DNA of 38,469 nt from Bacteroidales bacterium (GTDB lineage: Bacteria; Bacteroidota; Bacteroidia; Bacteroidales; JAIORY01), in contig JAIORY010000219.1 of the NCBI GenBank assembly GCA_021107915.1, positions 1 to 38,469 of the forward strand. The letters run 5' to 3'. The notes beneath the pieces are model-generated. The model did not search any database. It saw only the letters and a program-made list of their open reading frames with translations, and was not told where the DNA came from. Below are positions 378 through 35,830 of this stretch, one piece after another (position 1 is the stretch's first letter; every line of letters starts with the position of its first letter). Position numbers and translations under genes: made by a program.

Positions 378-1481
378 ATGAAAACGACAGAAAACACAAT
401 TCCACTTTTAGCTACACATCCGGGGAAAGTTCTTTTAGATGAAATTAAAGCAAATGATTTTACTCAAAGTGATTTTGCAAAGAAAATTGGTTTAAAGAAA
501 AGTCAGTTAAATGAAATTATAAAACGGAAAAGAAATATTAATGCTGAGTTGGCTATTTTATTAGAAAAAACATTGAATATTGATGCAGAATATTGGTTAG
601 AAATTCAAAAGAATTATGATTTAGACAAAGCTCGAATTAATATTAAGAATCAGCAAAGATTAGAAGCAATTGAGCAATGGAAATTTATAGAAAACAAAAT
701 TGCCACTTCATTTTTAAAGAAAGAAAAGGTATTAAGTGGAGATCCCATTGAAGATATAATTGCCGTCAAGAAAATATATAATGTGCAAAATTTTGAAGAA
801 TTAGCCAAATTAAATGCAAAACCTGCTTACGCCAGATTTAGAAAATCAACAAAATTAGAGATTGATCCAATTAATATTATTGGGTGGGTGAAATTACTTC
901 ACTTTAATGCAAGTCGGATATTTGTTGAAAAATTTGACTACGATAAAAAAAACGAATTAATTACAAAACTTAAACAGATTTTAAGAATAAACAAAAATAC
1001 TTTAGTGACAGTACAACTAACATTAGCAGATTTTGGAATTAAATTAATCTATCAGAGAAAAGGTGACAAAACACCTGTTGATGGAATCTCTTTTTGGAGT
1101 AATGGTAGCCCGGCAATTGGCATGTCTTTAAGACATAGTAGATTGGATAATTTTGCTTTTACACTTTTTCATGAATTAGGTCATATTTTTGAACATCTTC
1201 CAAATAACAATAAAGCCGAATTTGTTGATTTAATTGCTTCCAAAGAACAAAAAGATTACAAGAAATCAAAAGAAGAGAAAGAAGCTGATTTATTTGCACA
1301 AAAAAATATGATCGAATCTAAAAATTGGAAAGTTTTCTTTCTTAATCAAAGATTTGATGATAGAAGTATTATAGAATTTGCAAAAGAAAATGAAATTCAC
1401 CCATGTATTGTCAGGGGAAGAATTTGTTTTACGACAGGTTTTTATAAAGCAAAAACATCAATTGATTATTCAATTTATTAA
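378..1481 (+). CDS. Fusion protein: HigA/XRE-family HTH domain plus ImmA/IrrE-type (M78, COG2856) zinc metallopeptidase domain
   Basis: N-terminus HPGKVLLDEI...SQLNEIIKRKRNINAELAILLEKTLNIDAEYWLEIQKNYDL is a HigA-type HTH. C-terminal part carries the HEXXH motif FHELGHIFEH followed by EKEADLFA, as in ImmA/IrrE peptidases. Confidence 0.8.
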   Translation: MKTTENTIPLLATHPGKVLLDEIKANDFTQSDFAKKIGLKKSQLNEIIKRKRNINAELAILLEKTLNIDAEYWLEIQKNYDLDKARINIKNQQRLEAIEQWKFIENKIATSFLKKEKVLSGDPIEDIIAVKKIYNVQNFEELAKLNAKPAYARFRKSTKLEIDPINIIGWVKLLHFNASRIFVEKFDYDKKNELITKLKQILRINKNTLVTVQLTLADFGIKLIYQRKGDKTPVDGISFWSNGSPAIGMSLRHSRLDNFAFTLFHELGHIFEHLPNNNKAEFVDLIASKEQKDYKKSKEEKEADLFAQKNMIESKNWKVFFLNQRFDDRSIIEFAKENEIHPCIVRGRICFTTGFYKAKTSIDYSIY

Positions 1482-1570
1482 AATAATAAATTACAAACTT
1501 TGTTCAAACATCTTCCAAATCCAGAACTCAAAACTTGCTTCTAAATCTAAAATCTAAATTCATAAATCCC

Positions 1571-1638
1571 AAATTATCTTGCCTATTATATCTTTTTTAC
1601 ATAAGTTTGTAACATAATGTGAAGTTGAAAAATTTCAG
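1571..1638. repeat. Island promoter module R2, copy a (contains -7 box TAAGTTTG at 1602-1609)
   Basis: AAATTATCTTGCCTATTATATCTTTTTTACATAAGTTTGTAACATAATGTGAAGTTGAAAAATTTCAG is about 90% identical to 3704-3771. TTG-N20-TAAGTTTG fits the Bacteroidota promoter layout. Confidence 0.75.
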
Positions 1639-1772
1639 GTAATTAATTGCGAACTACTTTATTGGTTTTTTATAGAGAAAAACTACAATTTACTACAATC
1701 CAATTACTACAATTTATACTGATTTGTGAAAAGGATAATTTGAGTTTTTTAATATAGGTAAAAAATAATAAA

Positions 1773-3428
1773 TTGAGAAACGAAAAAAACATTAAAGACA
1801 TATTACGAGATTTGCTAAGTCAAGATTATGAAAATGAGATATTAGAATTTAAGGAGGCAAAAAACGGATATGATTTCAATAGACTCGGAAAGTATTTTTC
1901 TGCACTTTGCAATGAAGCGAATTTAAAAAATCAATCCCCTGCTTGGTTGGTTTTTGGTGTAAGAGATAAAAATAAAAAGATTATTGGCACTCAATTTAGG
2001 ACGAATAAAGCAAACCTGCATAAATTGAAAGCAGAAGTTGCAAATCACACTACCAACCGCATTACTTTTATAGAGATATATGAGTTTAACACACCAGATG
2101 GTAGAGTTGTTTTATTTGAAATTCCTACCGCTCCGAAAGGTATCCCTGTTTCATGGAAAGGCCATTATTACGGTAGAGATGGAGAAGAACTTAATGCCCT
2201 AAATCTGGAAGAAATTGAACGAATACGTATGCAATCCAACGAGGAAGATTGGAGTATTAAAATATGCAAAGGTGCTGATTTAAGAGATTTATCACAGGAA
2301 GCTATTTTAAAAGCTCGTTCTAATTTTAAAACTAAAAATCCAAATCTAAACAAAGAAATAAACAATTGGGATGATATTACATTTTTAAATAAGGCAAAAG
2401 TATGTATTAAAGGAAAAATTACTCGTGCAGCGATTTTACTGCTTGGTAAGTCTGAATCAGAACATTTCATTTCTCCTGCCACAGCTAAAATTACATGGAT
2501 ATTAAAAGACAGGGATAACATAGAAAAAGATTATGCACACTTTACCTGTCCTCTTCTTTTGAATACTGAAGAAGTTCATCAAAAAATACGAAATTTAAAA
2601 TATCGTTATTTGAAAGAAGGAACACTTTTTCCTGAAGAAGTTGATCAATTTGATTCTTACATTATTCGTGAAGCTTTGAATAATTGTATTGCACATCAAG
2701 ATTATTCTTTAGGTGGAAAAATTTCTGTAATTGAAAATGAAGATGGCAATTTGATTTTTAGTAATGCTGGTAAGTTTATTCCTGAAAGCGTCGAAGAAGT
2801 AATTATTTCTGATTCGCCTGAATATAGGTATAGAAATAAATTTTTAACAGATGCAATGGTCAACTTAAACATGATAGATAGTATCGGTAGTGGAATAAAA
2901 AAAATGTTTAATATTCAGAAAGAAAAGTTTTTTCCATTACCTGACTACGAGATAAAGAATAATAAAGTGAAGGTACGTTTTGTAGGTAAAGTAATGGATG
3001 TTAACTATGCCAGAAAATTGGTTACTATGCCAAACTTAAATTTATTGGATATCATTTTACTTGATAAAGTAGTTAAAAGAAAAACTTTATGTAATATTGA
3101 AATTAAACATTTGAAAAATAAAAATTTAATAGAAGGACGAAAACCTAATTTTTATGTTTCTATGTCTGTGGCAAAGGCTACTGGAGAACAGAGTGATTAT
3201 ATTAAACAGAGAGGTATTGATGATGAATATTGTCAAAAGATGATTTTGGATTATTTGAAAGAATTTGGCAAAGGAAAAAGTTCGGATTTTAAAAAAGTTC
3301 TTATTGACAAGTTATCAAATTCATTAAATGAAAAAAGGAAAGTTAATAAAATTAGAAATGTTTTACAGAAGCTTAGAAAAGATGGAAAAATAGTTATTAA
3401 GGGAAAGTATTGGAAAATTGCTATTTAG
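1773..3428 (+). CDS. AlbA_2 (Schlafen-like DNA-binding) plus HATPase_c_4 plus C-terminal wHTH protein, usually annotated as putative transcriptional regulator or RecG-like ATP-binding protein
   Basis: N-terminus ENEILEFKEAKNGYDF...WLVFGVRDKNKKIIG fits the AlbA_2 pattern. The central part IIREALNNCIAHQDYSLGGKISV...IDSIGSGIKKM fits HATPase_c_4. TTG start with no in-frame ATG upstream of the domain. Confidence 0.7.
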   Translation: MRNEKNIKDILRDLLSQDYENEILEFKEAKNGYDFNRLGKYFSALCNEANLKNQSPAWLVFGVRDKNKKIIGTQFRTNKANLHKLKAEVANHTTNRITFIEIYEFNTPDGRVVLFEIPTAPKGIPVSWKGHYYGRDGEELNALNLEEIERIRMQSNEEDWSIKICKGADLRDLSQEAILKARSNFKTKNPNLNKEINNWDDITFLNKAKVCIKGKITRAAILLLGKSESEHFISPATAKITWILKDRDNIEKDYAHFTCPLLLNTEEVHQKIRNLKYRYLKEGTLFPEEVDQFDSYIIREALNNCIAHQDYSLGGKISVIENEDGNLIFSNAGKFIPESVEEVIISDSPEYRYRNKFLTDAMVNLNMIDSIGSGIKKMFNIQKEKFFPLPDYEIKNNKVKVRFVGKVMDVNYARKLVTMPNLNLLDIILLDKVVKRKTLCNIEIKHLKNKNLIEGRKPNFYVSMSVAKATGEQSDYIKQRGIDDEYCQKMILDYLKEFGKGKSSDFKKVLIDKLSNSLNEKRKVNKIRNVLQKLRKDGKIVIKGKYWKIAI

Positions 3429-3542
3429 AATATTTTTAAATAAAATTAGCTATACTTTTAGAAAAACACTATTGGCATTCCTATATAAAAAACATGTAAT
3501 ATAAAGGTAAACAGTAAAATAAGGGGCTATTCAAATGTGAAT

Positions 3543-3582
3543 AAAATTGCTATTTAGAATGTGTTTAGAATAAATTTAGTCA
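3543..3582. repeat. Duplicate of the 3' tail of the 1773-3428 gene (remnant of a lost paralogous cassette?)
   Basis: AAAATTGCTATTTAGAAT (last codons KIAI plus stop) at 3414-3431 recurs exactly at 3543-3560. Similarity continues for about 20 more nt. Confidence 0.6.
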
Positions 3583-3610
3583 TTTTAAAGTTTTGTTATA
3601 TAAAAATTTA

Positions 3611-3705
3611 CAGAATAAGATTGTAATTGTTTTTTTTACATTTATCATTATTGAGGAAATGTAGAATTTAAAATAATAAATGACAAACTTTCTTCTAAAT
3701 CTTAA
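3611..3705. repeat. Island junction repeat R1, copy b
   Basis: Direct repeat of 171-264, here contiguous with R2. Confidence 0.9.
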
Positions 3706-3771
3706 ATTATCTTGCTTATTATATCTTTTTTACATAAGTTTGTAACAGAATTTGAAGTTGAATAATTTCAG
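3704..3771. repeat. Island promoter module R2, copy b (contains -7 box TAAGTTTG at 3735-3742)
   Basis: Same 68-nt module as 1571-1638, about 100 nt upstream of the TIR gene ATG. Confidence 0.75.
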
Positions 3772-3840
3772 ATATACTAATCTTAACAGATATGCAAAGC
3801 AATAGCTGCTCAGAAGTAGCTGGCACAAATTAGAAAACCT

Positions 3841-4692
3841 ATGGAAAACCAAGAATTTAAATACGATATAGCATTATCATTCGCAGGTGAAGACCGCGAG
3901 TACGTAAACAAAGTAGCAAATTTGTTAAAAGAAAAAGACGTCAAAGTTTTTTATGACTTGTTTGAAGAAGAAGATTTATGGGGGAAGGATTTGGGTGTTC
4001 ATTTTGACTTTGTATATCGAAAAAGCGCACGATATTGTATACCATTTATTTCATCTAGTTACAAAGAAAAAATTTGGACTAGTCATGAAATCAAAACTGC
4101 AATATCAAGAGCCATAGAATCCAATCACGAGTATATACTTCCTGCAAGATTTGATAACACCGAAATAGATGGCATTAGACCTACTTTAGGCTTCATTGAC
4201 CTCAGAAAAAACACACCAGAACAACTAGCCAATAAAATCTTAAAGAAGCTTGAAAAGGAACCTTCTATACCTGTAACTGAAAAAGAACAAGAAACAGATG
4301 GAAACATTTTTGCTTCAGTTTATGTCATTACATACGACCAAGTGAACGTTCATGAAGTATCAATAGGTGTTACAATGACGAATGTAATGAAGGAACATAG
4401 ATATTTTAATGAACCAAGCTTCTTGCTATCTGAGGCTGTGATTGGCAATGCAGACGCCTTCTATTTAATAGATAAAATCGAACCAATTAAATTCCCTATA
4501 AAACTTGAATATGGTGAGGTAGCAAAAGCTTCTTATAGATTAAAATATGAATCAAAAGATGGTTTTTGGGAAAAACTTTCAAAAGACGCATTTTTCCAAG
4601 CTGAAGTAACAACTACTGTTGGAGAAAGGTATAAATCAAATAAGGTAAAAGCCCAAATGGTATTAGATTCTTTTGGAATGATAAAAAAATAA
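3841..4692 (+). CDS. TIR-domain protein (TIR_2/ThsB-like N-terminal domain, about 140 aa) with an unassigned C-terminal domain of about 130 aa
   Basis: YDIALSFAGEDREYVNKVANLLKEKDVKVFYD...IPFISSSYKEKIWTSHEIKTAI is a bacterial TIR signature, including the conserved Glu (E83 in WTSHE). I cannot assign residues ~155-283 to any family. Confidence 0.8.
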   Translation: MENQEFKYDIALSFAGEDREYVNKVANLLKEKDVKVFYDLFEEEDLWGKDLGVHFDFVYRKSARYCIPFISSSYKEKIWTSHEIKTAISRAIESNHEYILPARFDNTEIDGIRPTLGFIDLRKNTPEQLANKILKKLEKEPSIPVTEKEQETDGNIFASVYVITYDQVNVHEVSIGVTMTNVMKEHRYFNEPSFLLSEAVIGNADAFYLIDKIEPIKFPIKLEYGEVAKASYRLKYESKDGFWEKLSKDAFFQAEVTTTVGERYKSNKVKAQMVLDSFGMIKK

Positions 4693-26939: not shown

Positions 26940-27296
26940 TTATTGTTTTGGACCAATTGTTTTTATATAATTATTAATTTTTATACCAATTATTTCTAAT
27001 TTGTTTAATAACTCATTGGAAACATCGTTTGAGATTAATTTTCGATTTTTAGCTTTTGTTATCCATGTTTTAGTTTCAAATAGCGAACCTCGTGCATAAT
27101 AACTAAAATTTTTTCTTTCCTTGTAATGATATCTACCGATGCCTTCGCTTAAATTTGCTGCAATAGAGTCTGCTGAACGGACAAGTTGTTTTCCTGAAGT
27201 ATCTTTGTCAAAGTAATCCCATTTAATAACATTGGAATAAACTAATTCACCCAAGTCCATTGCAAGATTGTAAACATTAAAGTCTTCTAATTTCAT
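26940..27296 (-). CDS. Four-helix-bundle protein (23S rRNA IVS protein / TIGR02436 family), copy 2
   Basis: FNVYNLAMDLGELVYS...GKQLVRSADSIAANLSEGIGRYHYKERKNFSYYARGSLFETKTWI. Start preferred at MKLEDF (27296) rather than the ORF-track start at 27353. Confidence 0.8.
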   Translation of the reverse strand: MKLEDFNVYNLAMDLGELVYSNVIKWDYFDKDTSGKQLVRSADSIAANLSEGIGRYHYKERKNFSYYARGSLFETKTWITKAKNRKLISNDVSNELLNKLEIIGIKINNYIKTIGPKQ

Positions 27297-27353
27297 TGTT
27301 AATATATTGTTATAATTAGTAAAAAAAATGATTGATTTTGTTGTAACTGCCAT

Positions 27354-32236: not shown

Positions 32237-35200
32237 CTAAACAACAATATTTATTATTCTTTTCGGAACGACAATTATTTTTCTCGGCGTTTTTCCCTCA
32301 ATCCATTTCTGAGCTTCTTTTGCTTCAAGTGCTGCTTTTTCTATTTCGTCTTTTGGCATGTCAACCGGTAACTCAAGTTTAAAACGCATTTTACCATTAA
32401 ACGAGACAGGATAAGTAAAAGTATTTTCTGCTACAAAATCTTTATTGAATTCGGGATACTTTGCCTTAGTGATGCTTTTTTCGTTACCGAGTAGTGACCA
32501 TAATTCTTCAGCAATATGAGGTGCATAAGATGAAACCAAAATTGCAAGCGGTTCCAAAATTTCTCTTTTGTTACATTTAAGATCAGAGAGTTCGTTTACG
32601 CAAATCATAAAAGTACTGACCGCCGTATTAAAAGAAAATCTTTCAATATCGTCCTTAATTTTTTTAATGGTTTTATGTAAAACTTTTAATTCTTCCTTTG
32701 AAGCTTTTGCATCTGAAACATCAAAATTATTTGATTCATTATGATATAATCGCCATAGTTTTTTAATAAATCTAAAAACTCCTTCTATACCTTTTGTGTC
32801 CCAAGGCTTGTGTGTTTCAAGTGGTCCAAGAAACATTTCATATAATCTGAGAGTATCTGCACCATATTCGTCAATTAAATAATCAGGATTTTGAACATTG
32901 TGTTTGGATTTTGACATTTTTTCGACCTCCCAGCCGCAAATATATTTCCCGTCTTCGAGAATAAATTTTACATCATTATATTCTGATCGCCACTTTTTAA
33001 ATTCATCAATATTCAAAATATCATTATCAACTAAATTGATATCAACATGTAGTGGAGTTGAAAATAATTGTCTGTCTTTTACACCATGCGAAACAAATAA
33101 TGGTTTGAGATCACGAACTTCGTGGTGATTAAAAATAACCCCTTTTTCTTTATGTTCAAGTGCTTCAATGGTTTCATCAATTACTGCTTCGATGTTTTCA
33201 ATAATATCTGCAATAGGAATAAGAATTAATTTTTTATTTGTTGTTTTGATGTACTCTTTATAAAAAGACTCAAGTTTTTCAAGTTTTTTCTGGCTTCTTA
33301 TCTCAACAATTAAATTCTCCTTTTTATTATAGAAATCAAATCTCCTGTGACCATCTTTATAATTTCTTATAAACTCATGTTCTAATTTGTTTTTTTTAAT
33401 GTACTCCCAAAGTAAATACTCGGCATATTTTTCCATATTTACTCTATAAACAAAACTGCTTCTTCCTTGTATTTTGCCTTGGTTAATAAGTTTTTTATAG
33501 GGTTCATCTTTACAAACCATTCCTATATCGAATAAAAATTTGTTCCAGAAACGAGAATAAATTAAATGCCCGGTTCCATGCTCGTCCCCTCCAATGTAGA
33601 GGTCAACATCTTGCCAGTATTGATTTGCTTCTTTCGAAAAATATTCTTTATTATTTTTAGGATCCATATAACGAAGATAATACCCGCTTGATCCTGCAAA
33701 GCCGGGCATGGTGTTGGTTTCGAGAGGATAGCCGTCTTTTGTTTTCCAGCTTTTAGCACGTGCCAAAGGTGGTTCTCCGCTTTTTGTCGGCAGATATTTA
33801 TCAACTTCGGGAAGTTTGAGGGGAAGTTCTTTTTCGTCCAGAACGTAAGGCACCCCATCTTTATAATAAACAGGAAACGGCTCGCCCCAATATCGTTGTC
33901 TGCTAAAAATTGCATCACGGAGCCGGTAATTAATTGTTCCGTAGCCTGCATTTTTTTCTTCAAGTTTTTTAATAACTGCTTTAATGGCATCTTTTACTTC
34001 CATCCCGTCAATAAAATCTGAATTCATCATTTTGCCGGTTTTGGCATCATAAGATTCTTCAGAAATATCACCACCCGAAACTACCTGAATAATTGGAATG
34101 TCAAAATGTTTTGCAAAAGCATAGTCGCGGCTATCGTGTGCCGGCACTGCCATAATTGCTCCTGTTCCGTATCCGGCAAGAACATAATCTGCAATCCAGA
34201 TAGGGATTTTTTTTCCGTTAAGGGGATTAATTCCATAAGCTCCTGTAAATACACCTGTGATATTTTTTACTTCTGCCATTCGTTCTCTTTCCGAACGGTT
34301 TTTAGCTCTGGTAACATACTCATCAACTTTTTCTTTCCTTTCGGGAGATGTAATTTTTTCAACAAGTTCGTGCTCAGGAGCAAGAACCATATATGTGGAA
34401 CCGAATAAAGTATCGGGGCGGGTTGTGAAAACGGAAACCCCACCTAAATCCTCCCCAACCCCACCTAAATCCTCCCCATAGGGGAGGACTTTGTTATCTA
34501 AATACTTTGTAATTTTATTAATTACTTCATCAGTATTTGTTACAACTTCATTATTAGAAAAACGGATGACTGAAAATCCAAGTTTATTTAAAATTTCAGT
34601 TCTTTCCTGATCTTCTTCAATTTGTGTATCATGAATTTTACCATCAATTTCAATAATGGTCATTTTTTCTAAACAAACGAAATCAACAATAAATTTATTA
34701 ATAACATGCTGTCTTCTAATTTTGTAGCCAATTTGTTTTTCTCTTAATCTTTCCCAAATAATTGATTCAGCTTCAGTTGGATTTTTCCTCGCTTCCTTAG
34801 CTTTTTCTTTTAATAAAGCCCACATTTGAGAATCAGTATTATAAAACGGAGGAATATCTTTTTCTACAAAATAAATAGAACTTTTTTCTCCCTCCCTATT
34901 GGGGAGGGTTGGGGAGGGGTGTTTTTTTTCCCCCTCCCCAATGGGGAGGGCCGGGGTGGGGTGAAATCTCACCATCGCTCCTTCGCTTCTACCTATCCAA
35001 TTTCTTTGAACTTCTTTTAACGAATCTGTCCAGTCAACTGTTTCCAGCCCGTCAAGTAATCTTTGAGCATAAGCGGTAATTCTCAACGACCATTGTTTCA
35101 TTAATTTTCGTTCAACAGCATGCCCGCCTCTTTCCGAACAACCGTCTTTCACCTCATCGTTTGCAAGAACGGTTCCTAAATCAGGACACCAGTTTACCAT

Positions 35201-35830
35201 GGTTTTTGAAATATATGCAAGACGATAATTTAACAATATTTCCTGTTGTTGTTTTTCGGTTTTCGATTTCCATTCTTCAGCCGAAAAAATTTCTGTTTCA
35301 TCACAAGCTGCATTAATATTTTTGTTTCCTGAAGTTTCAAAATCTTTTATTAGTGAGCCAATTGATTGAGCTTTATCCTTATTTTTATCATACCACGAAT
35401 TGAATAATTGAATAAAAACCCACTGAGTCCATTTGTAATAATGAGGATCGCAAGTTCTTACTTCCCTGTCCCAATCATAAGAAAAGCCAATATTATCAAG
35501 CTGCTCTCTGTATTTTTCAATATTTTTATTAGTTGTAATTTCAGGATGTGTTCCCGTTTGAATTGCATATTGTTCAGCCGGCAGACCATAAGCATCAAAT
35601 CCCATAGGATGTAGAACATTGAAACCTTCTAATCGTTTGTATCTTGAATAAATATCCGATGCAATATATCCTAATGGATGACCAACATGTAATCCTGCCC
35701 CCGAGGGATAAGGAAACATATCGAGAACATAATATTTAGGTTTGTTGTGATCGATTTCTGCTTTGTAGGTCTTATTTGTACTCCAGTACTTTTGCCATTT
35801 TTTTTCTATCTCTCTGAAGTTATATTCCAT
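32237..35830 (-). CDS. leuS: Leucine--tRNA ligase carrying two in-frame endonuclease-like insertions (1197 aa)
   Basis: [16 protein letters not shown] (HIGH), [18 protein letters not shown] and KMSKSKHNV (KMSKS) are all present and colinear. About 290 extra residues lie in two blocks. Confidence 0.9.
33101..33439 (-). other. In-frame degenerate DUF559-like module inside leuS (about aa 798-910), between FVYRV and LFVSHG, upstream of KMSKS
   Basis: [44 protein letters not shown]...[22 protein letters not shown] is colinear with the intact module at 34436-34963. Both have the same 24-residue W-to-DF spacing, IVEI against IIEI, and [13 protein letters not shown] against [12 protein letters not shown]. 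Confidence 0.55.
34436..34963 (-). mobile_element. In-frame DUF559 (Vsr-like PD-(D/E)xK endonuclease) cassette with GC-rich hairpin flanks inside leuS (about aa 290-464)
   Basis: [83 protein letters not shown] is a full DUF559 signature. Flanks are a 21-nt tandem CCCCACCTAAATCCTCCCCA(A) x2 (34438-34478) and hairpins at 34470-34488, 34890-34908 and 34932-34950. Confidence 0.8.

Follow-up and report, generated by a model that had tools for sequence, protein, structure and literature searches.

An in-frame DUF559 nuclease cassette with inverted hairpin ends in a leucyl-tRNA synthetase gene of a Bacteroidales bacterium

The leucyl-tRNA synthetase gene leuS of a Bacteroidales metagenome-assembled genome (MAG; GenBank assembly GCA_021107915.1, contig JAIORY010000219.1) is interrupted by 528 nt that encode a DUF559 domain between GC-rich hairpins. 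The window analysed was the whole contig of 38,469 bp, with a GC content of 31.2%. The insertion, termed insert 1, is probably a copy of an unspliced, in-frame mobile nuclease cassette of about 0.45–0.53 kb, in which a DUF559 reading frame lies between inverted GC-rich hairpin units. Each unit combines a stem of 8 bp and a loop of 3 nt with a G-rich tail. Comparisons with other loci identified insert 1 as no one-off, being one copy of a widespread cassette family in many host genes. The gene and the parts of the cassette were delimited as follows:

32237–35830, minus strand: leuS, leucyl-tRNA synthetase (LeuRS) of 1197 aa, a single open reading frame (ORF) and the host of two insertions
34436–34963, minus strand: insert 1, the whole cassette of 528 nt or 176 codons, in frame and without its own start or stop codon, delimited by alignment with empty-site relatives
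34924–34963, minus strand: 5' terminal unit, outer copy, CACCCCACCCCGG followed by the hairpin CCCTCCCC-ATT-GGGGAGGG (34932–34950), read as 14 residues
34882–34921, minus strand: 5' terminal unit, inner copy, a 42-nt tandem duplicate with the hairpin CCCTCCC-CAATA-GGGAGGG (34890–34908), read as 14 residues
34811–34881, minus strand: linker plus the helical extension N-terminal to the nuclease, aa 317–340, kept both among relatives and in the cassettes that other hosts carry
34499–34810, minus strand: DUF559/Vsr-like PD-(D/E)XK nuclease core, aa 341–444, recognised by Pfam, by 3HRL and by invariant motifs
34436–34492, minus strand: 3' terminal unit, AAAGTCCTCCCC-TAT-GGGGAGGATTTAGGTGGGGTT, with the final 21 nt (GGGGAGGATTTAGGTGGGGTT) tandemly repeated, read as 19 residues

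Insert 1 starts with codon His290 (34963), ends with Val465 (34436) and contains no stop codon. It separates the conserved NWIGRSEG and TTRPDT blocks of LeuRS. Empty-site relatives show only F-G-I-EGFDDK-L-E-V-F at this position, and the LeuRS of T. thermophilus (1H3N) has a 9-residue turn there in the sequence alignment. Crystallised editing-domain constructs start in this region. The site is therefore the tip or turn of the beta-hairpin at which the CP1 editing domain begins. An earlier reading of the window from its sequence alone (the sequence-only reading) had proposed a 528-nt in-frame insert without stop codon at the entry to the editing domain, and the ORF, the empty-site alignment and the 1H3N turn bore this out.

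The core of insert 1 was assigned with the DUF559 profile PF04480, which matched LeuRS aa 341–444 over profile positions 4–108 of 109 (E 3.1e-35; 120.8 bits, cut-off 20.6). Insert 1 alone matched DUF559 with E 1.4e-33 and the solved DUF559 structure 3HRL with E 3e-19. The core motifs were TEAE, RRQH, VDF, IEIDGxIH, DxxRT and GxxVIRFxNxEV. Residues D59, E70, D72, H76 and R48-R49-Q50 were invariant across nine diverged LeuRS inserts, and the RRQ and E[IVL]DG motifs were retained in 44 of 48. Judged by sequence, a profile score above the curated cut-off together with conserved acidic, His and RRQ residues places the core in the DUF559 family. The intact DUF559 nuclease within leuS that the sequence-only reading had described, naming a significant profile match as the check, was thus recovered. 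The ratio of non-synonymous to synonymous substitution rates (dN/dS) was 0.09–0.11 for the core in the leuS frame, which shows purifying selection and therefore suggests a working protein domain that is translated in this frame. An AlphaFold model of the whole LeuRS reached a predicted local distance difference test score (pLDDT) of 53 and a predicted template modelling score of 0.30, and only its local confidence was used. Given as means of 10-residue blocks, confidence was 64–83 in the core and below 50 in the flank-coded aa 292–340 and 448–464, including the linker part of aa 317–340. This fits flank-coded segments that act as flexible linkers.

Both ends of the cassette are inverted copies of one unit, namely a hairpin, 5 nt and then GGNGGGGT. 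They form an imperfect 30-nt inverted repeat (34458–34487 and 34933–34962) with 80% complementarity, and the same ends occur at other loci; terminal inverted repeats of this kind characterise insertion sequences and miniature inverted-repeat transposable elements. The three hairpins listed in the sequence-only reading (34470–34488, 34890–34908 and 34932–34950) were present, and its peptide readings LPIGEGE, LPNREGE, LPYGEDL and twice GEDLGGV were correct. Its 21-nt tandem repeat was also found, as a perfect repeat with the limits 34436–34456 and 34457–34477. A 42-nt tandem repeat (34882–34921 and 34924–34963, 85% identity) had not been listed there; the relatives L002 and L003 hold the 5' unit in single copy. 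The lengths of both duplications are multiples of 3. The pattern CCTCCCN3-7GGGAGG was observed four times compared to none in 100 shuffles, and the pattern CCTCCCN4GGGGAGGN5GGNGGGGT three times, again compared to none in 100 shuffles. Perfect 7-bp GC-rich palindromes in the window were confined to the leuS insert. The hairpin-unit pattern matched both insert ends in the window and in L002, L003 and L004, and had no match in the empty-site locus L001.

The 3' unit was far more conserved than the 5' unit and was kept at the nucleotide level among LeuRS inserts whose nuclease cores were 50–60% identical. Unit DNA was read in three frames, giving LPxGEG(D)xGGV, PSPxGRE or PPLxGGxG. In the hairpin flanks, synonymous differences were low (0.12–0.3), and non-synonymous differences were equal or higher. 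Stems differed among cassettes (CCCTCCCC, CCCCCTCC, CCTTCCCC, CCCTCTCC and CCTCCCCC), a list that is descriptive and no test, as a perfect palindrome was a condition of the search. Because of the three reading frames, the low synonymous differences and the differing stems, the hairpin flanks are taken to behave as nucleic-acid elements and not as protein. The G-rich side of the unit (34891–34920 and 34933–34962; also in L038, L071 and L073) fits a four-run G-quadruplex motif (GGGGAGGGCCGGGGTGGGG, GGGGAGGGTTAGGGAGGGG), and the opposite strand is correspondingly C-rich.

The source is a metagenome-assembled contig, only 38 kb of the genome are in view, a second leuS could lie elsewhere, and public annotation gives only a 399-aa leuS fragment. 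An assembly chimera, or a pseudogene with a dead leuS copy here and an intact leuS elsewhere, was still very improbable. The identical insert-bearing gene was present in ENA and JGI assemblies (L003, L004), so that the same junctions recur in independent assemblies. The exact LeuRS protein of the window was also encoded on a separate 105-kb contig, and among the members of one related cluster at least nine were full-length and came from different assemblies. The gene has an intact ORF, and every LeuRS family domain matched: TIGR00396, the bacterial LeuRS model, scored 909 bits, and Pfam recognised tRNA-synt_1 (the class I catalytic domain), the LeuRS editing domain and Anticodon_1. The host part of leuS showed dN/dS of 0.05–0.10, and its neighbourhood FtsX, leuS, DUF3108, DUF3098, BacA and TruB is common to an empty-site genome. 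The strong purifying selection and the conserved neighbourhood make it unlikely that leuS is a dead copy. The sequence-only reading had named a junction artefact and a pseudogene as ways to be wrong; the artefact was rejected and the pseudogene judged unlikely.

Splicing was considered next to translation through the insert. Pfam was searched for Hint and intein families up to E 0.1, and none was found. The junctions F/HPTP and GGV/SVF have no Cys, Ser or Thr as first residue and no C-terminal His-Asn, and the Ser after the insert has no His-Asn before it and is replaced by Ile, Val or Leu in relatives. An intein was therefore rejected, in line with the earlier statement that intein hallmarks are lacking. 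Introns of group I or group II were rejected as well, as the best Rfam matches reached 17–24 bits compared to gathering scores of 33–86 and were chance hairpin matches. The frame was kept in all insert copies examined. A hidden out-of-frame gene, as in the ShiLan insertion of phages, was also rejected: other frames held only short opposite-strand ORFs across the hairpins (34257–34481 and 34826–35020).

The sequence-only reading had left it between a tolerated insert and one removed by some unknown route. Removal before the enzyme works could take the form of RNA-level excision, of ribosome bypass via pairing of the ends or of proteolytic trimming at the linkers. In the predicted mRNA fold of 34425–34975 (minus strand), CACCCCACC at the 5' end of the insert is paired with GGUGGGGU at its 3' end, and one stem domain encloses the whole insert, with -165 kcal/mol and a z-score of -5.9 compared to shuffles. 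The predicted disorder of the linkers and the conserved synonymous sites of the hairpins would, like this fold, suit removal. Against this, all 48 diverged LeuRS copies examined preserve the reading frame across the whole element, even where multiplied units are read in other frames, and the 21-nt and 42-nt duplications preserve it. In contrast to known bypass sites, neither end has a stop codon. No Rfam intron matched, and proteolysis would split LeuRS at the CP1 hinge. Removal was thus considered improbable, and the sequence evidence favours a tolerated insert.

The distribution of insert 1 was surveyed in the 120 nearest LeuRS proteins. It was present at the same site in 48 of them, with lengths from about 150 to 390 aa that vary because hairpin units were multiplied. 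The proteins P0025 and P0105 had lost the nuclease core and kept the flanks. At this site of L084, a Mucilaginibacter LeuRS, the 5' unit was followed by 14 nt and then the 3' unit, and by nothing else of the cassette. Empty-site orthologues, which the sequence-only reading had proposed to look for, were found even at 90% identity of the host part (P0003 with insert, P0009 without). Intact, decayed and empty sites therefore coexist in close relatives, a pattern as for homing elements. Two LeuRS loci, L042 and L044, held an additional copy of the 5' unit past the 3' unit. The LeuRS relative P0195 carried DUF559 at this site and a NUDIX domain (aa 520–643) in the editing region.

Synonymous differences per site between the window and P0006 were 0.38 in the insert and 0.68 in the host part (Fisher p 9e-7). 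The control pair, the window and its closest relative P0001, showed 0.44 and 0.47, respectively (p 0.71). In a sliding window, the synonymous drop sets in with the 5' junction and tapers off over the next 40 or so codons downstream. As the synonymous divergence of the insert is far below that of the host, these values indicate an insert younger than the split of the two LeuRS lineages, and at least one lateral transfer. A fixed site, presence and absence among relatives and evidence of lateral spread, which mark homing elements, were thus all found for insert 1.

A second insertion in the same gene had been missed by the sequence-only reading:

33095–33442, minus strand: insert 2, aa 797–912, a diverged DUF559-superfamily domain without hairpin flanks, in the leucine-specific region before KMSKS

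Insert 2 was present in 70 of the 120 nearest LeuRS, independently of the presence or absence of insert 1. Its match to Pfam DUF559 lay just below the cut-off (E 7e-4, 19.8 bits), and a profile–profile comparison with insert 1 gave a probability of 95% and E 3e-8. The best matches of its AF2 model (pLDDT 77.7) were I-Bth0305I (3R3P) and DUF559 (3HRL). The motif is of the D...ExK type, FDF...IVEIK, with R for K in the window. A dN/dS of 0.07–0.14 indicates purifying selection. Insert 2 has the look of an earlier insertion, by now settled, from the same superfamily.

Insert 2 bears on the question of whether insert 1 is a domesticated accessory domain, that is, one ancestral DUF559 insertion that now serves LeuRS or the cell in nucleic-acid binding, regulation or repair moonlighting and is inherited vertically with occasional loss. 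Insert 2, in 70 of 120 relatives and without hairpins, looks like such an old fixed insertion. For insert 1, purifying selection on the core as strong as that on the host, the constant LeuRS site and the presence in 48 of the 120 nearest relatives would agree with domestication. Relatives with an empty site exist, however, at 90% host identity, and the core-deleted and hairpin-only derivatives show that the domain is dispensable. Synonymous divergence of the insert far below that of the host between two lineages also speaks against domestication, as does the fact that the same cassette, hairpin ends included, occurs in many unrelated enzymes and also as a free-standing gene. Domestication was therefore considered unlikely.

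A protein search with the 176-aa insert in 1.84 billion cluster representatives yielded 20,942 relatives. Among the best 150 of these, the domain was internal, with at least 80 aa on each side, in 46 and stand-alone in 68, and hairpin-derived peptides lay beside the domain in 30%. Other hosts identified included isoleucyl-tRNA synthetase (IleRS), RecJ with a split DHH domain, queuine tRNA-ribosyltransferase (TGT), methionine synthase (MetH) and UDP-GlcNAc 2-epimerase. Further hosts were family 2 glycosyltransferases (GT2), polysaccharide synthesis proteins, Eco57I-type methylase/restriction and Type ISP enzymes, Lhr helicases and many SpoIIE phosphatases. One of the Lhr helicases with a cassette (L020) belongs to the cultured Mucilaginibacter sp. 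OK268. Free-standing DUF559 genes with their own start and stop codons, which the sequence-only reading had suggested searching for, showed the layout of 5' unit, DUF559 and 3' unit (L038, L097 and L104).

Two GT2 genes that are only 30% identical have 456 nt in common at 82% identity. The common stretch is bounded by hairpin units and occupies non-homologous positions in the two genes, which defines the mobile unit and shows that it has moved to new sites. In 17 of 19 cassettes with DNA available, both sides bore perfect GC-rich palindromes at comparable distances, and the remaining two (L138 and L139) had looser hairpins at both ends. Close pairs of nuclease cores fell in the same host family. 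One glycosyltransferase, P0176, combines an N-terminus like that of P0203 (71%), the cassette and a C-terminus like that of P0167 (74%) (loci L138 and L139). This reflects either recombination between different genes at the cassette that they share, or wrong joining at the repeat during metagenome assembly. In L083 (5570–6593, Hyphomicrobiales), two tandem cassettes with a 551-nt period were present and the DUF559 frame was broken in two.

The hairpin unit itself was scanned for in one genome per species with a pattern derived from the leuS element, which gave at least 120 loci. Among the matches listed, nearly all loci belonged to Bacteroidota (Prevotella, Paludibacteraceae, Mucilaginibacter, Chitinophagales and Cytophagales) and Ignavibacteria, and few to Hyphomicrobiales and other groups. 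Open frames of at least 150 aa held 80 of the 135 unit occurrences among the matches listed. Hosts of solo units included valyl-tRNA synthetase (ValRS; just before the TTRPET block), glutaminyl-tRNA synthetase (GlnRS), RecF, Tex, SpoIIE and other LeuRS sites. Within one genome, several copies of the unit were near-identical. In the Ignavibacteria MAG CoA_1_bin.73, three units around a free-standing DUF559 gene match four solo units, with six of the seven identical and a one-base difference in the loop of the remaining unit. In viral contigs the unit was rare, with 12 stretches in 2.9 million contigs.

These loci also bear on a reading in which nuclease and hairpins are unrelated neighbours, independent repeats of the repetitive extragenic palindromic (REP) or Rickettsia palindromic element (RPE) kind having later surrounded an unrelated DUF559 insertion. 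About 100 of the 120 listed hairpin loci have no nearby DUF559, insert 2 has no hairpins and the number of units varies between copies. This reading is nevertheless hardly probable, given the palindromes on each side of 17 of 19 cassettes and the looser hairpins of the other two, the GT2 similarity that starts and ends at units, the free-standing genes with the same layout and, in CoA_1_bin.73, the agreement between the units around the DUF559 gene and the solo units of that genome.

Several observations weigh against a mobile, unspliced nuclease cassette. Insert 1 always occupies one LeuRS position, and the window holds this single cassette, with no other DUF559 gene or hairpin unit in its 38,469 bp. 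One old LeuRS insertion that was passed on vertically, was lost many times and now and then recombined between alleles could account for much of the pattern, without nuclease action. At 55–60% identity, nearest-neighbour grouping of the nuclease cores neither set the LeuRS inserts apart as one group nor showed clear host switching. DUF559 adjoins the unit at only about 17 of 120 loci among the matches listed, the rest being solo units, so that unit and nuclease are strongly but not obligatorily linked; the scan pattern, moreover, came from the leuS element. No target-site duplication was recognisable around the insert, where the host loop is replaced. No known transposase (DDE, HUH, serine or tyrosine) was present in the cassette, whose only reading frame is DUF559. 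Retention of the insert in the mature LeuRS and nuclease activity of this subfamily are both predictions from the gene sequence. The whole-LeuRS model was too poor for a reliable placement of the domain relative to the active sites; of the structure check suggested earlier, the low linker confidence fitted flexible flanks and the domain placement was unusable.

On the preferred reading of a mobile in-frame cassette, insert 1 would be expressed together with the rest of LeuRS, at both the mRNA and the protein level, and would not be removed. The nuclease would form an additional domain of the enzyme, joined to it by flexible Pro/Gly-rich linkers that are no more than the hairpin DNA in translation, and would serve the element and not LeuRS. 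The predicted nuclease may cut the empty target or hairpin-marked sites, upon which host recombination repair would copy the cassette in. In-frame copies would persist in tolerant surface loops of essential genes, as imprecise loss would kill the gene. The fixed LeuRS site resembles homing and the GT2 pair resembles transposition, and both may apply.

In the public record of the contig, leuS is represented by no more than MCD4773003.1 (32237–33433), a 'class I tRNA ligase family protein' of 399 aa that starts at a Met within insert 2, and the full 1197-aa leuS was missed by annotation. LeuRS relatives carry the public label 'DUF559 domain-containing protein, partial'. A defence-like island at 378–4692 encodes a protein with helix-turn-helix and M78-peptidase domains, a Schlafen/AlbA_2 ATPase and a TIR_2 domain protein. 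It corresponds to the TIR island of the sequence-only reading, which had also taken a hairpin at its border (146–169) for a relative of the insert hairpins; the island stood and the relationship did not. This hairpin, AAATCCTCCC-GTAA-GGGAGGATTT, closely follows the stop codon with which the first, partial gene ends. A G-rich tail is missing from it, and on the minus strand it resembles a terminator by score (fold of the DNA -10.4 kcal/mol, z-score -6.5). It is probably an ordinary terminator. A gene of the four-helix-bundle family 23S_rRNA_IVP (Pfam E 9e-24) lies at 26940–27353 on the minus strand between IspD and RuvC and is missing at this spot in the close relative L002. A second gene of this family (L138, 4529–4936) was found 8 nt past the cassette-bearing glycosyltransferase gene. 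The 23S_rRNA_IVP family may represent a further small selfish gene, present at some loci and absent from others.

Among described systems, RPEs are short palindromic repeats that lie in frame in unrelated housekeeping genes and are read as extra peptide (PMC10969869). The comparison with RPEs made in the sequence-only reading was apt, as hairpin units also occur alone in many coding genes and in different frames. They are likewise in frame in unrelated genes (ValRS, GlnRS, RecF, Tex, SpoIIE and LeuRS), multi-copy and near-identical per genome. Compared by description, RPEs are about 150 bp long and carry no enzyme, whereas the units are about 30–35 nt, GC-rich, found in Bacteroidota and Ignavibacteria, and bound a nuclease as a pair. 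Inteins with a homing endonuclease are also in frame in essential genes, with the nuclease translated within the host protein, and are patchily present at a fixed site that can be empty in close relatives, with degenerate copies as a gain–decay–loss cycle would leave. In contrast to inteins, the cassette has no Hint domain or splice-junction residues, its ends are inverted hairpin repeats and its nuclease is of the PD-(D/E)XK type, not LAGLIDADG or HNH.

Vsr-like nucleases of selfish elements that interrupt essential genes were described as 'fractured gene' endonucleases by Dassa et al. 2009 (PMC2677866). A survey groups VSR, DUF559 and DUF2726, including I-Bth0305I, with the structures 1CW0, 3HRL and 3R3P (PMC3424549). 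Vsr-like (EDxHD) homing endonucleases belong to the same fold superfamily as the cassette nuclease, and the insert 2 model is closest to 3R3P. They are free-standing between split-intein halves or in group I introns, with their own start and stop codons and a host restored by splicing, whereas the nuclease of the leuS cassette is a read-through part of the host protein. The ShiLan insertion in a phage DNA methylase is actively spreading, read through in frame, free of intein and intron features and predicted to loop out of the fold (Arsenault et al. 2025, PMC11855218). It differs in that an HNH endonuclease with its own start and stop codons lies in another frame, in phage hosts and with no hairpin ends described, whereas the leuS cassette nuclease is in the host frame.

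A Caulobacter DUF559 protein damages DNA when its cognate methylase is missing (PMC12907096). By profile and sequence, stand-alone DUF559 proteins (NGO0050 of N. gonorrhoeae, i.e., 3HRL; the E. coli PRK09767 type; Caulobacter VsrA) belong to the same family as the insert core; they are independent genes with a proposed repair role, and none is reported inside a synthetase or bounded by hairpins. Full-text searches of the literature outside subscription journals found no account of a synthetase with an internal DUF559 domain or of a DUF559 cassette between hairpins. REP-associated tyrosine transposases (RAYTs) are HUH/Y1 transposases, and REPs are extragenic. RAYT genes are not known to be embedded in other proteins. 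The likeness lies in a small nuclease-type gene flanked by inverted GC-rich units that also occur solo or paired and are genome-specific, and the difference in the protein, a DUF559 PD-(D/E)XK nuclease and not an HUH/Y1 transposase. Among RPEs, inteins, Vsr-like homing endonucleases and ShiLan, none combines an in-frame, apparently unspliced nuclease with hairpin terminal repeats.

A broader proposal is put forward more tentatively, at slightly less than an even chance. The cassette would represent a so far undescribed mobile-element class of Bacteroidota and Ignavibacteria, in which a Vsr-like nuclease and its cognate hairpin units, REP/RAYT-like, persist as an unspliced read-through domain in essential proteins. 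Such an element would borrow transcription and translation from its host, and the essential host gene would guard it against deletion. It would be a third in-frame parasite beside inteins and RPEs and a natural route for insertion domains of aminoacyl-tRNA synthetases, with insert 2 as an older fixed product. There is a fair chance that the cassette will stand as a distinct class once its mechanism is known.

The cassette causes annotation errors such as the 399-aa leuS fragment and the label 'DUF559 domain-containing protein, partial', and as a repeat it may give chimeric metagenome assemblies. If the reading as a mobile in-frame cassette is right, it adds a new kind of selfish element whose nuclease needs no intein, intron, promoter or start codon and whose hairpin ends spread alone into coding sequence. 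The small nucleases, which may recognise hairpin or specific DNA, and the natural permissive insertion sites marked in LeuRS, IleRS, MetH, RecJ and TGT would then be of interest for enzyme engineering. The cassette would also offer a concrete, testable answer to the old question of the origin of large idiosyncratic insertion domains in synthetases and other conserved enzymes, as this leuS combines a young and an old insertion from one superfamily.

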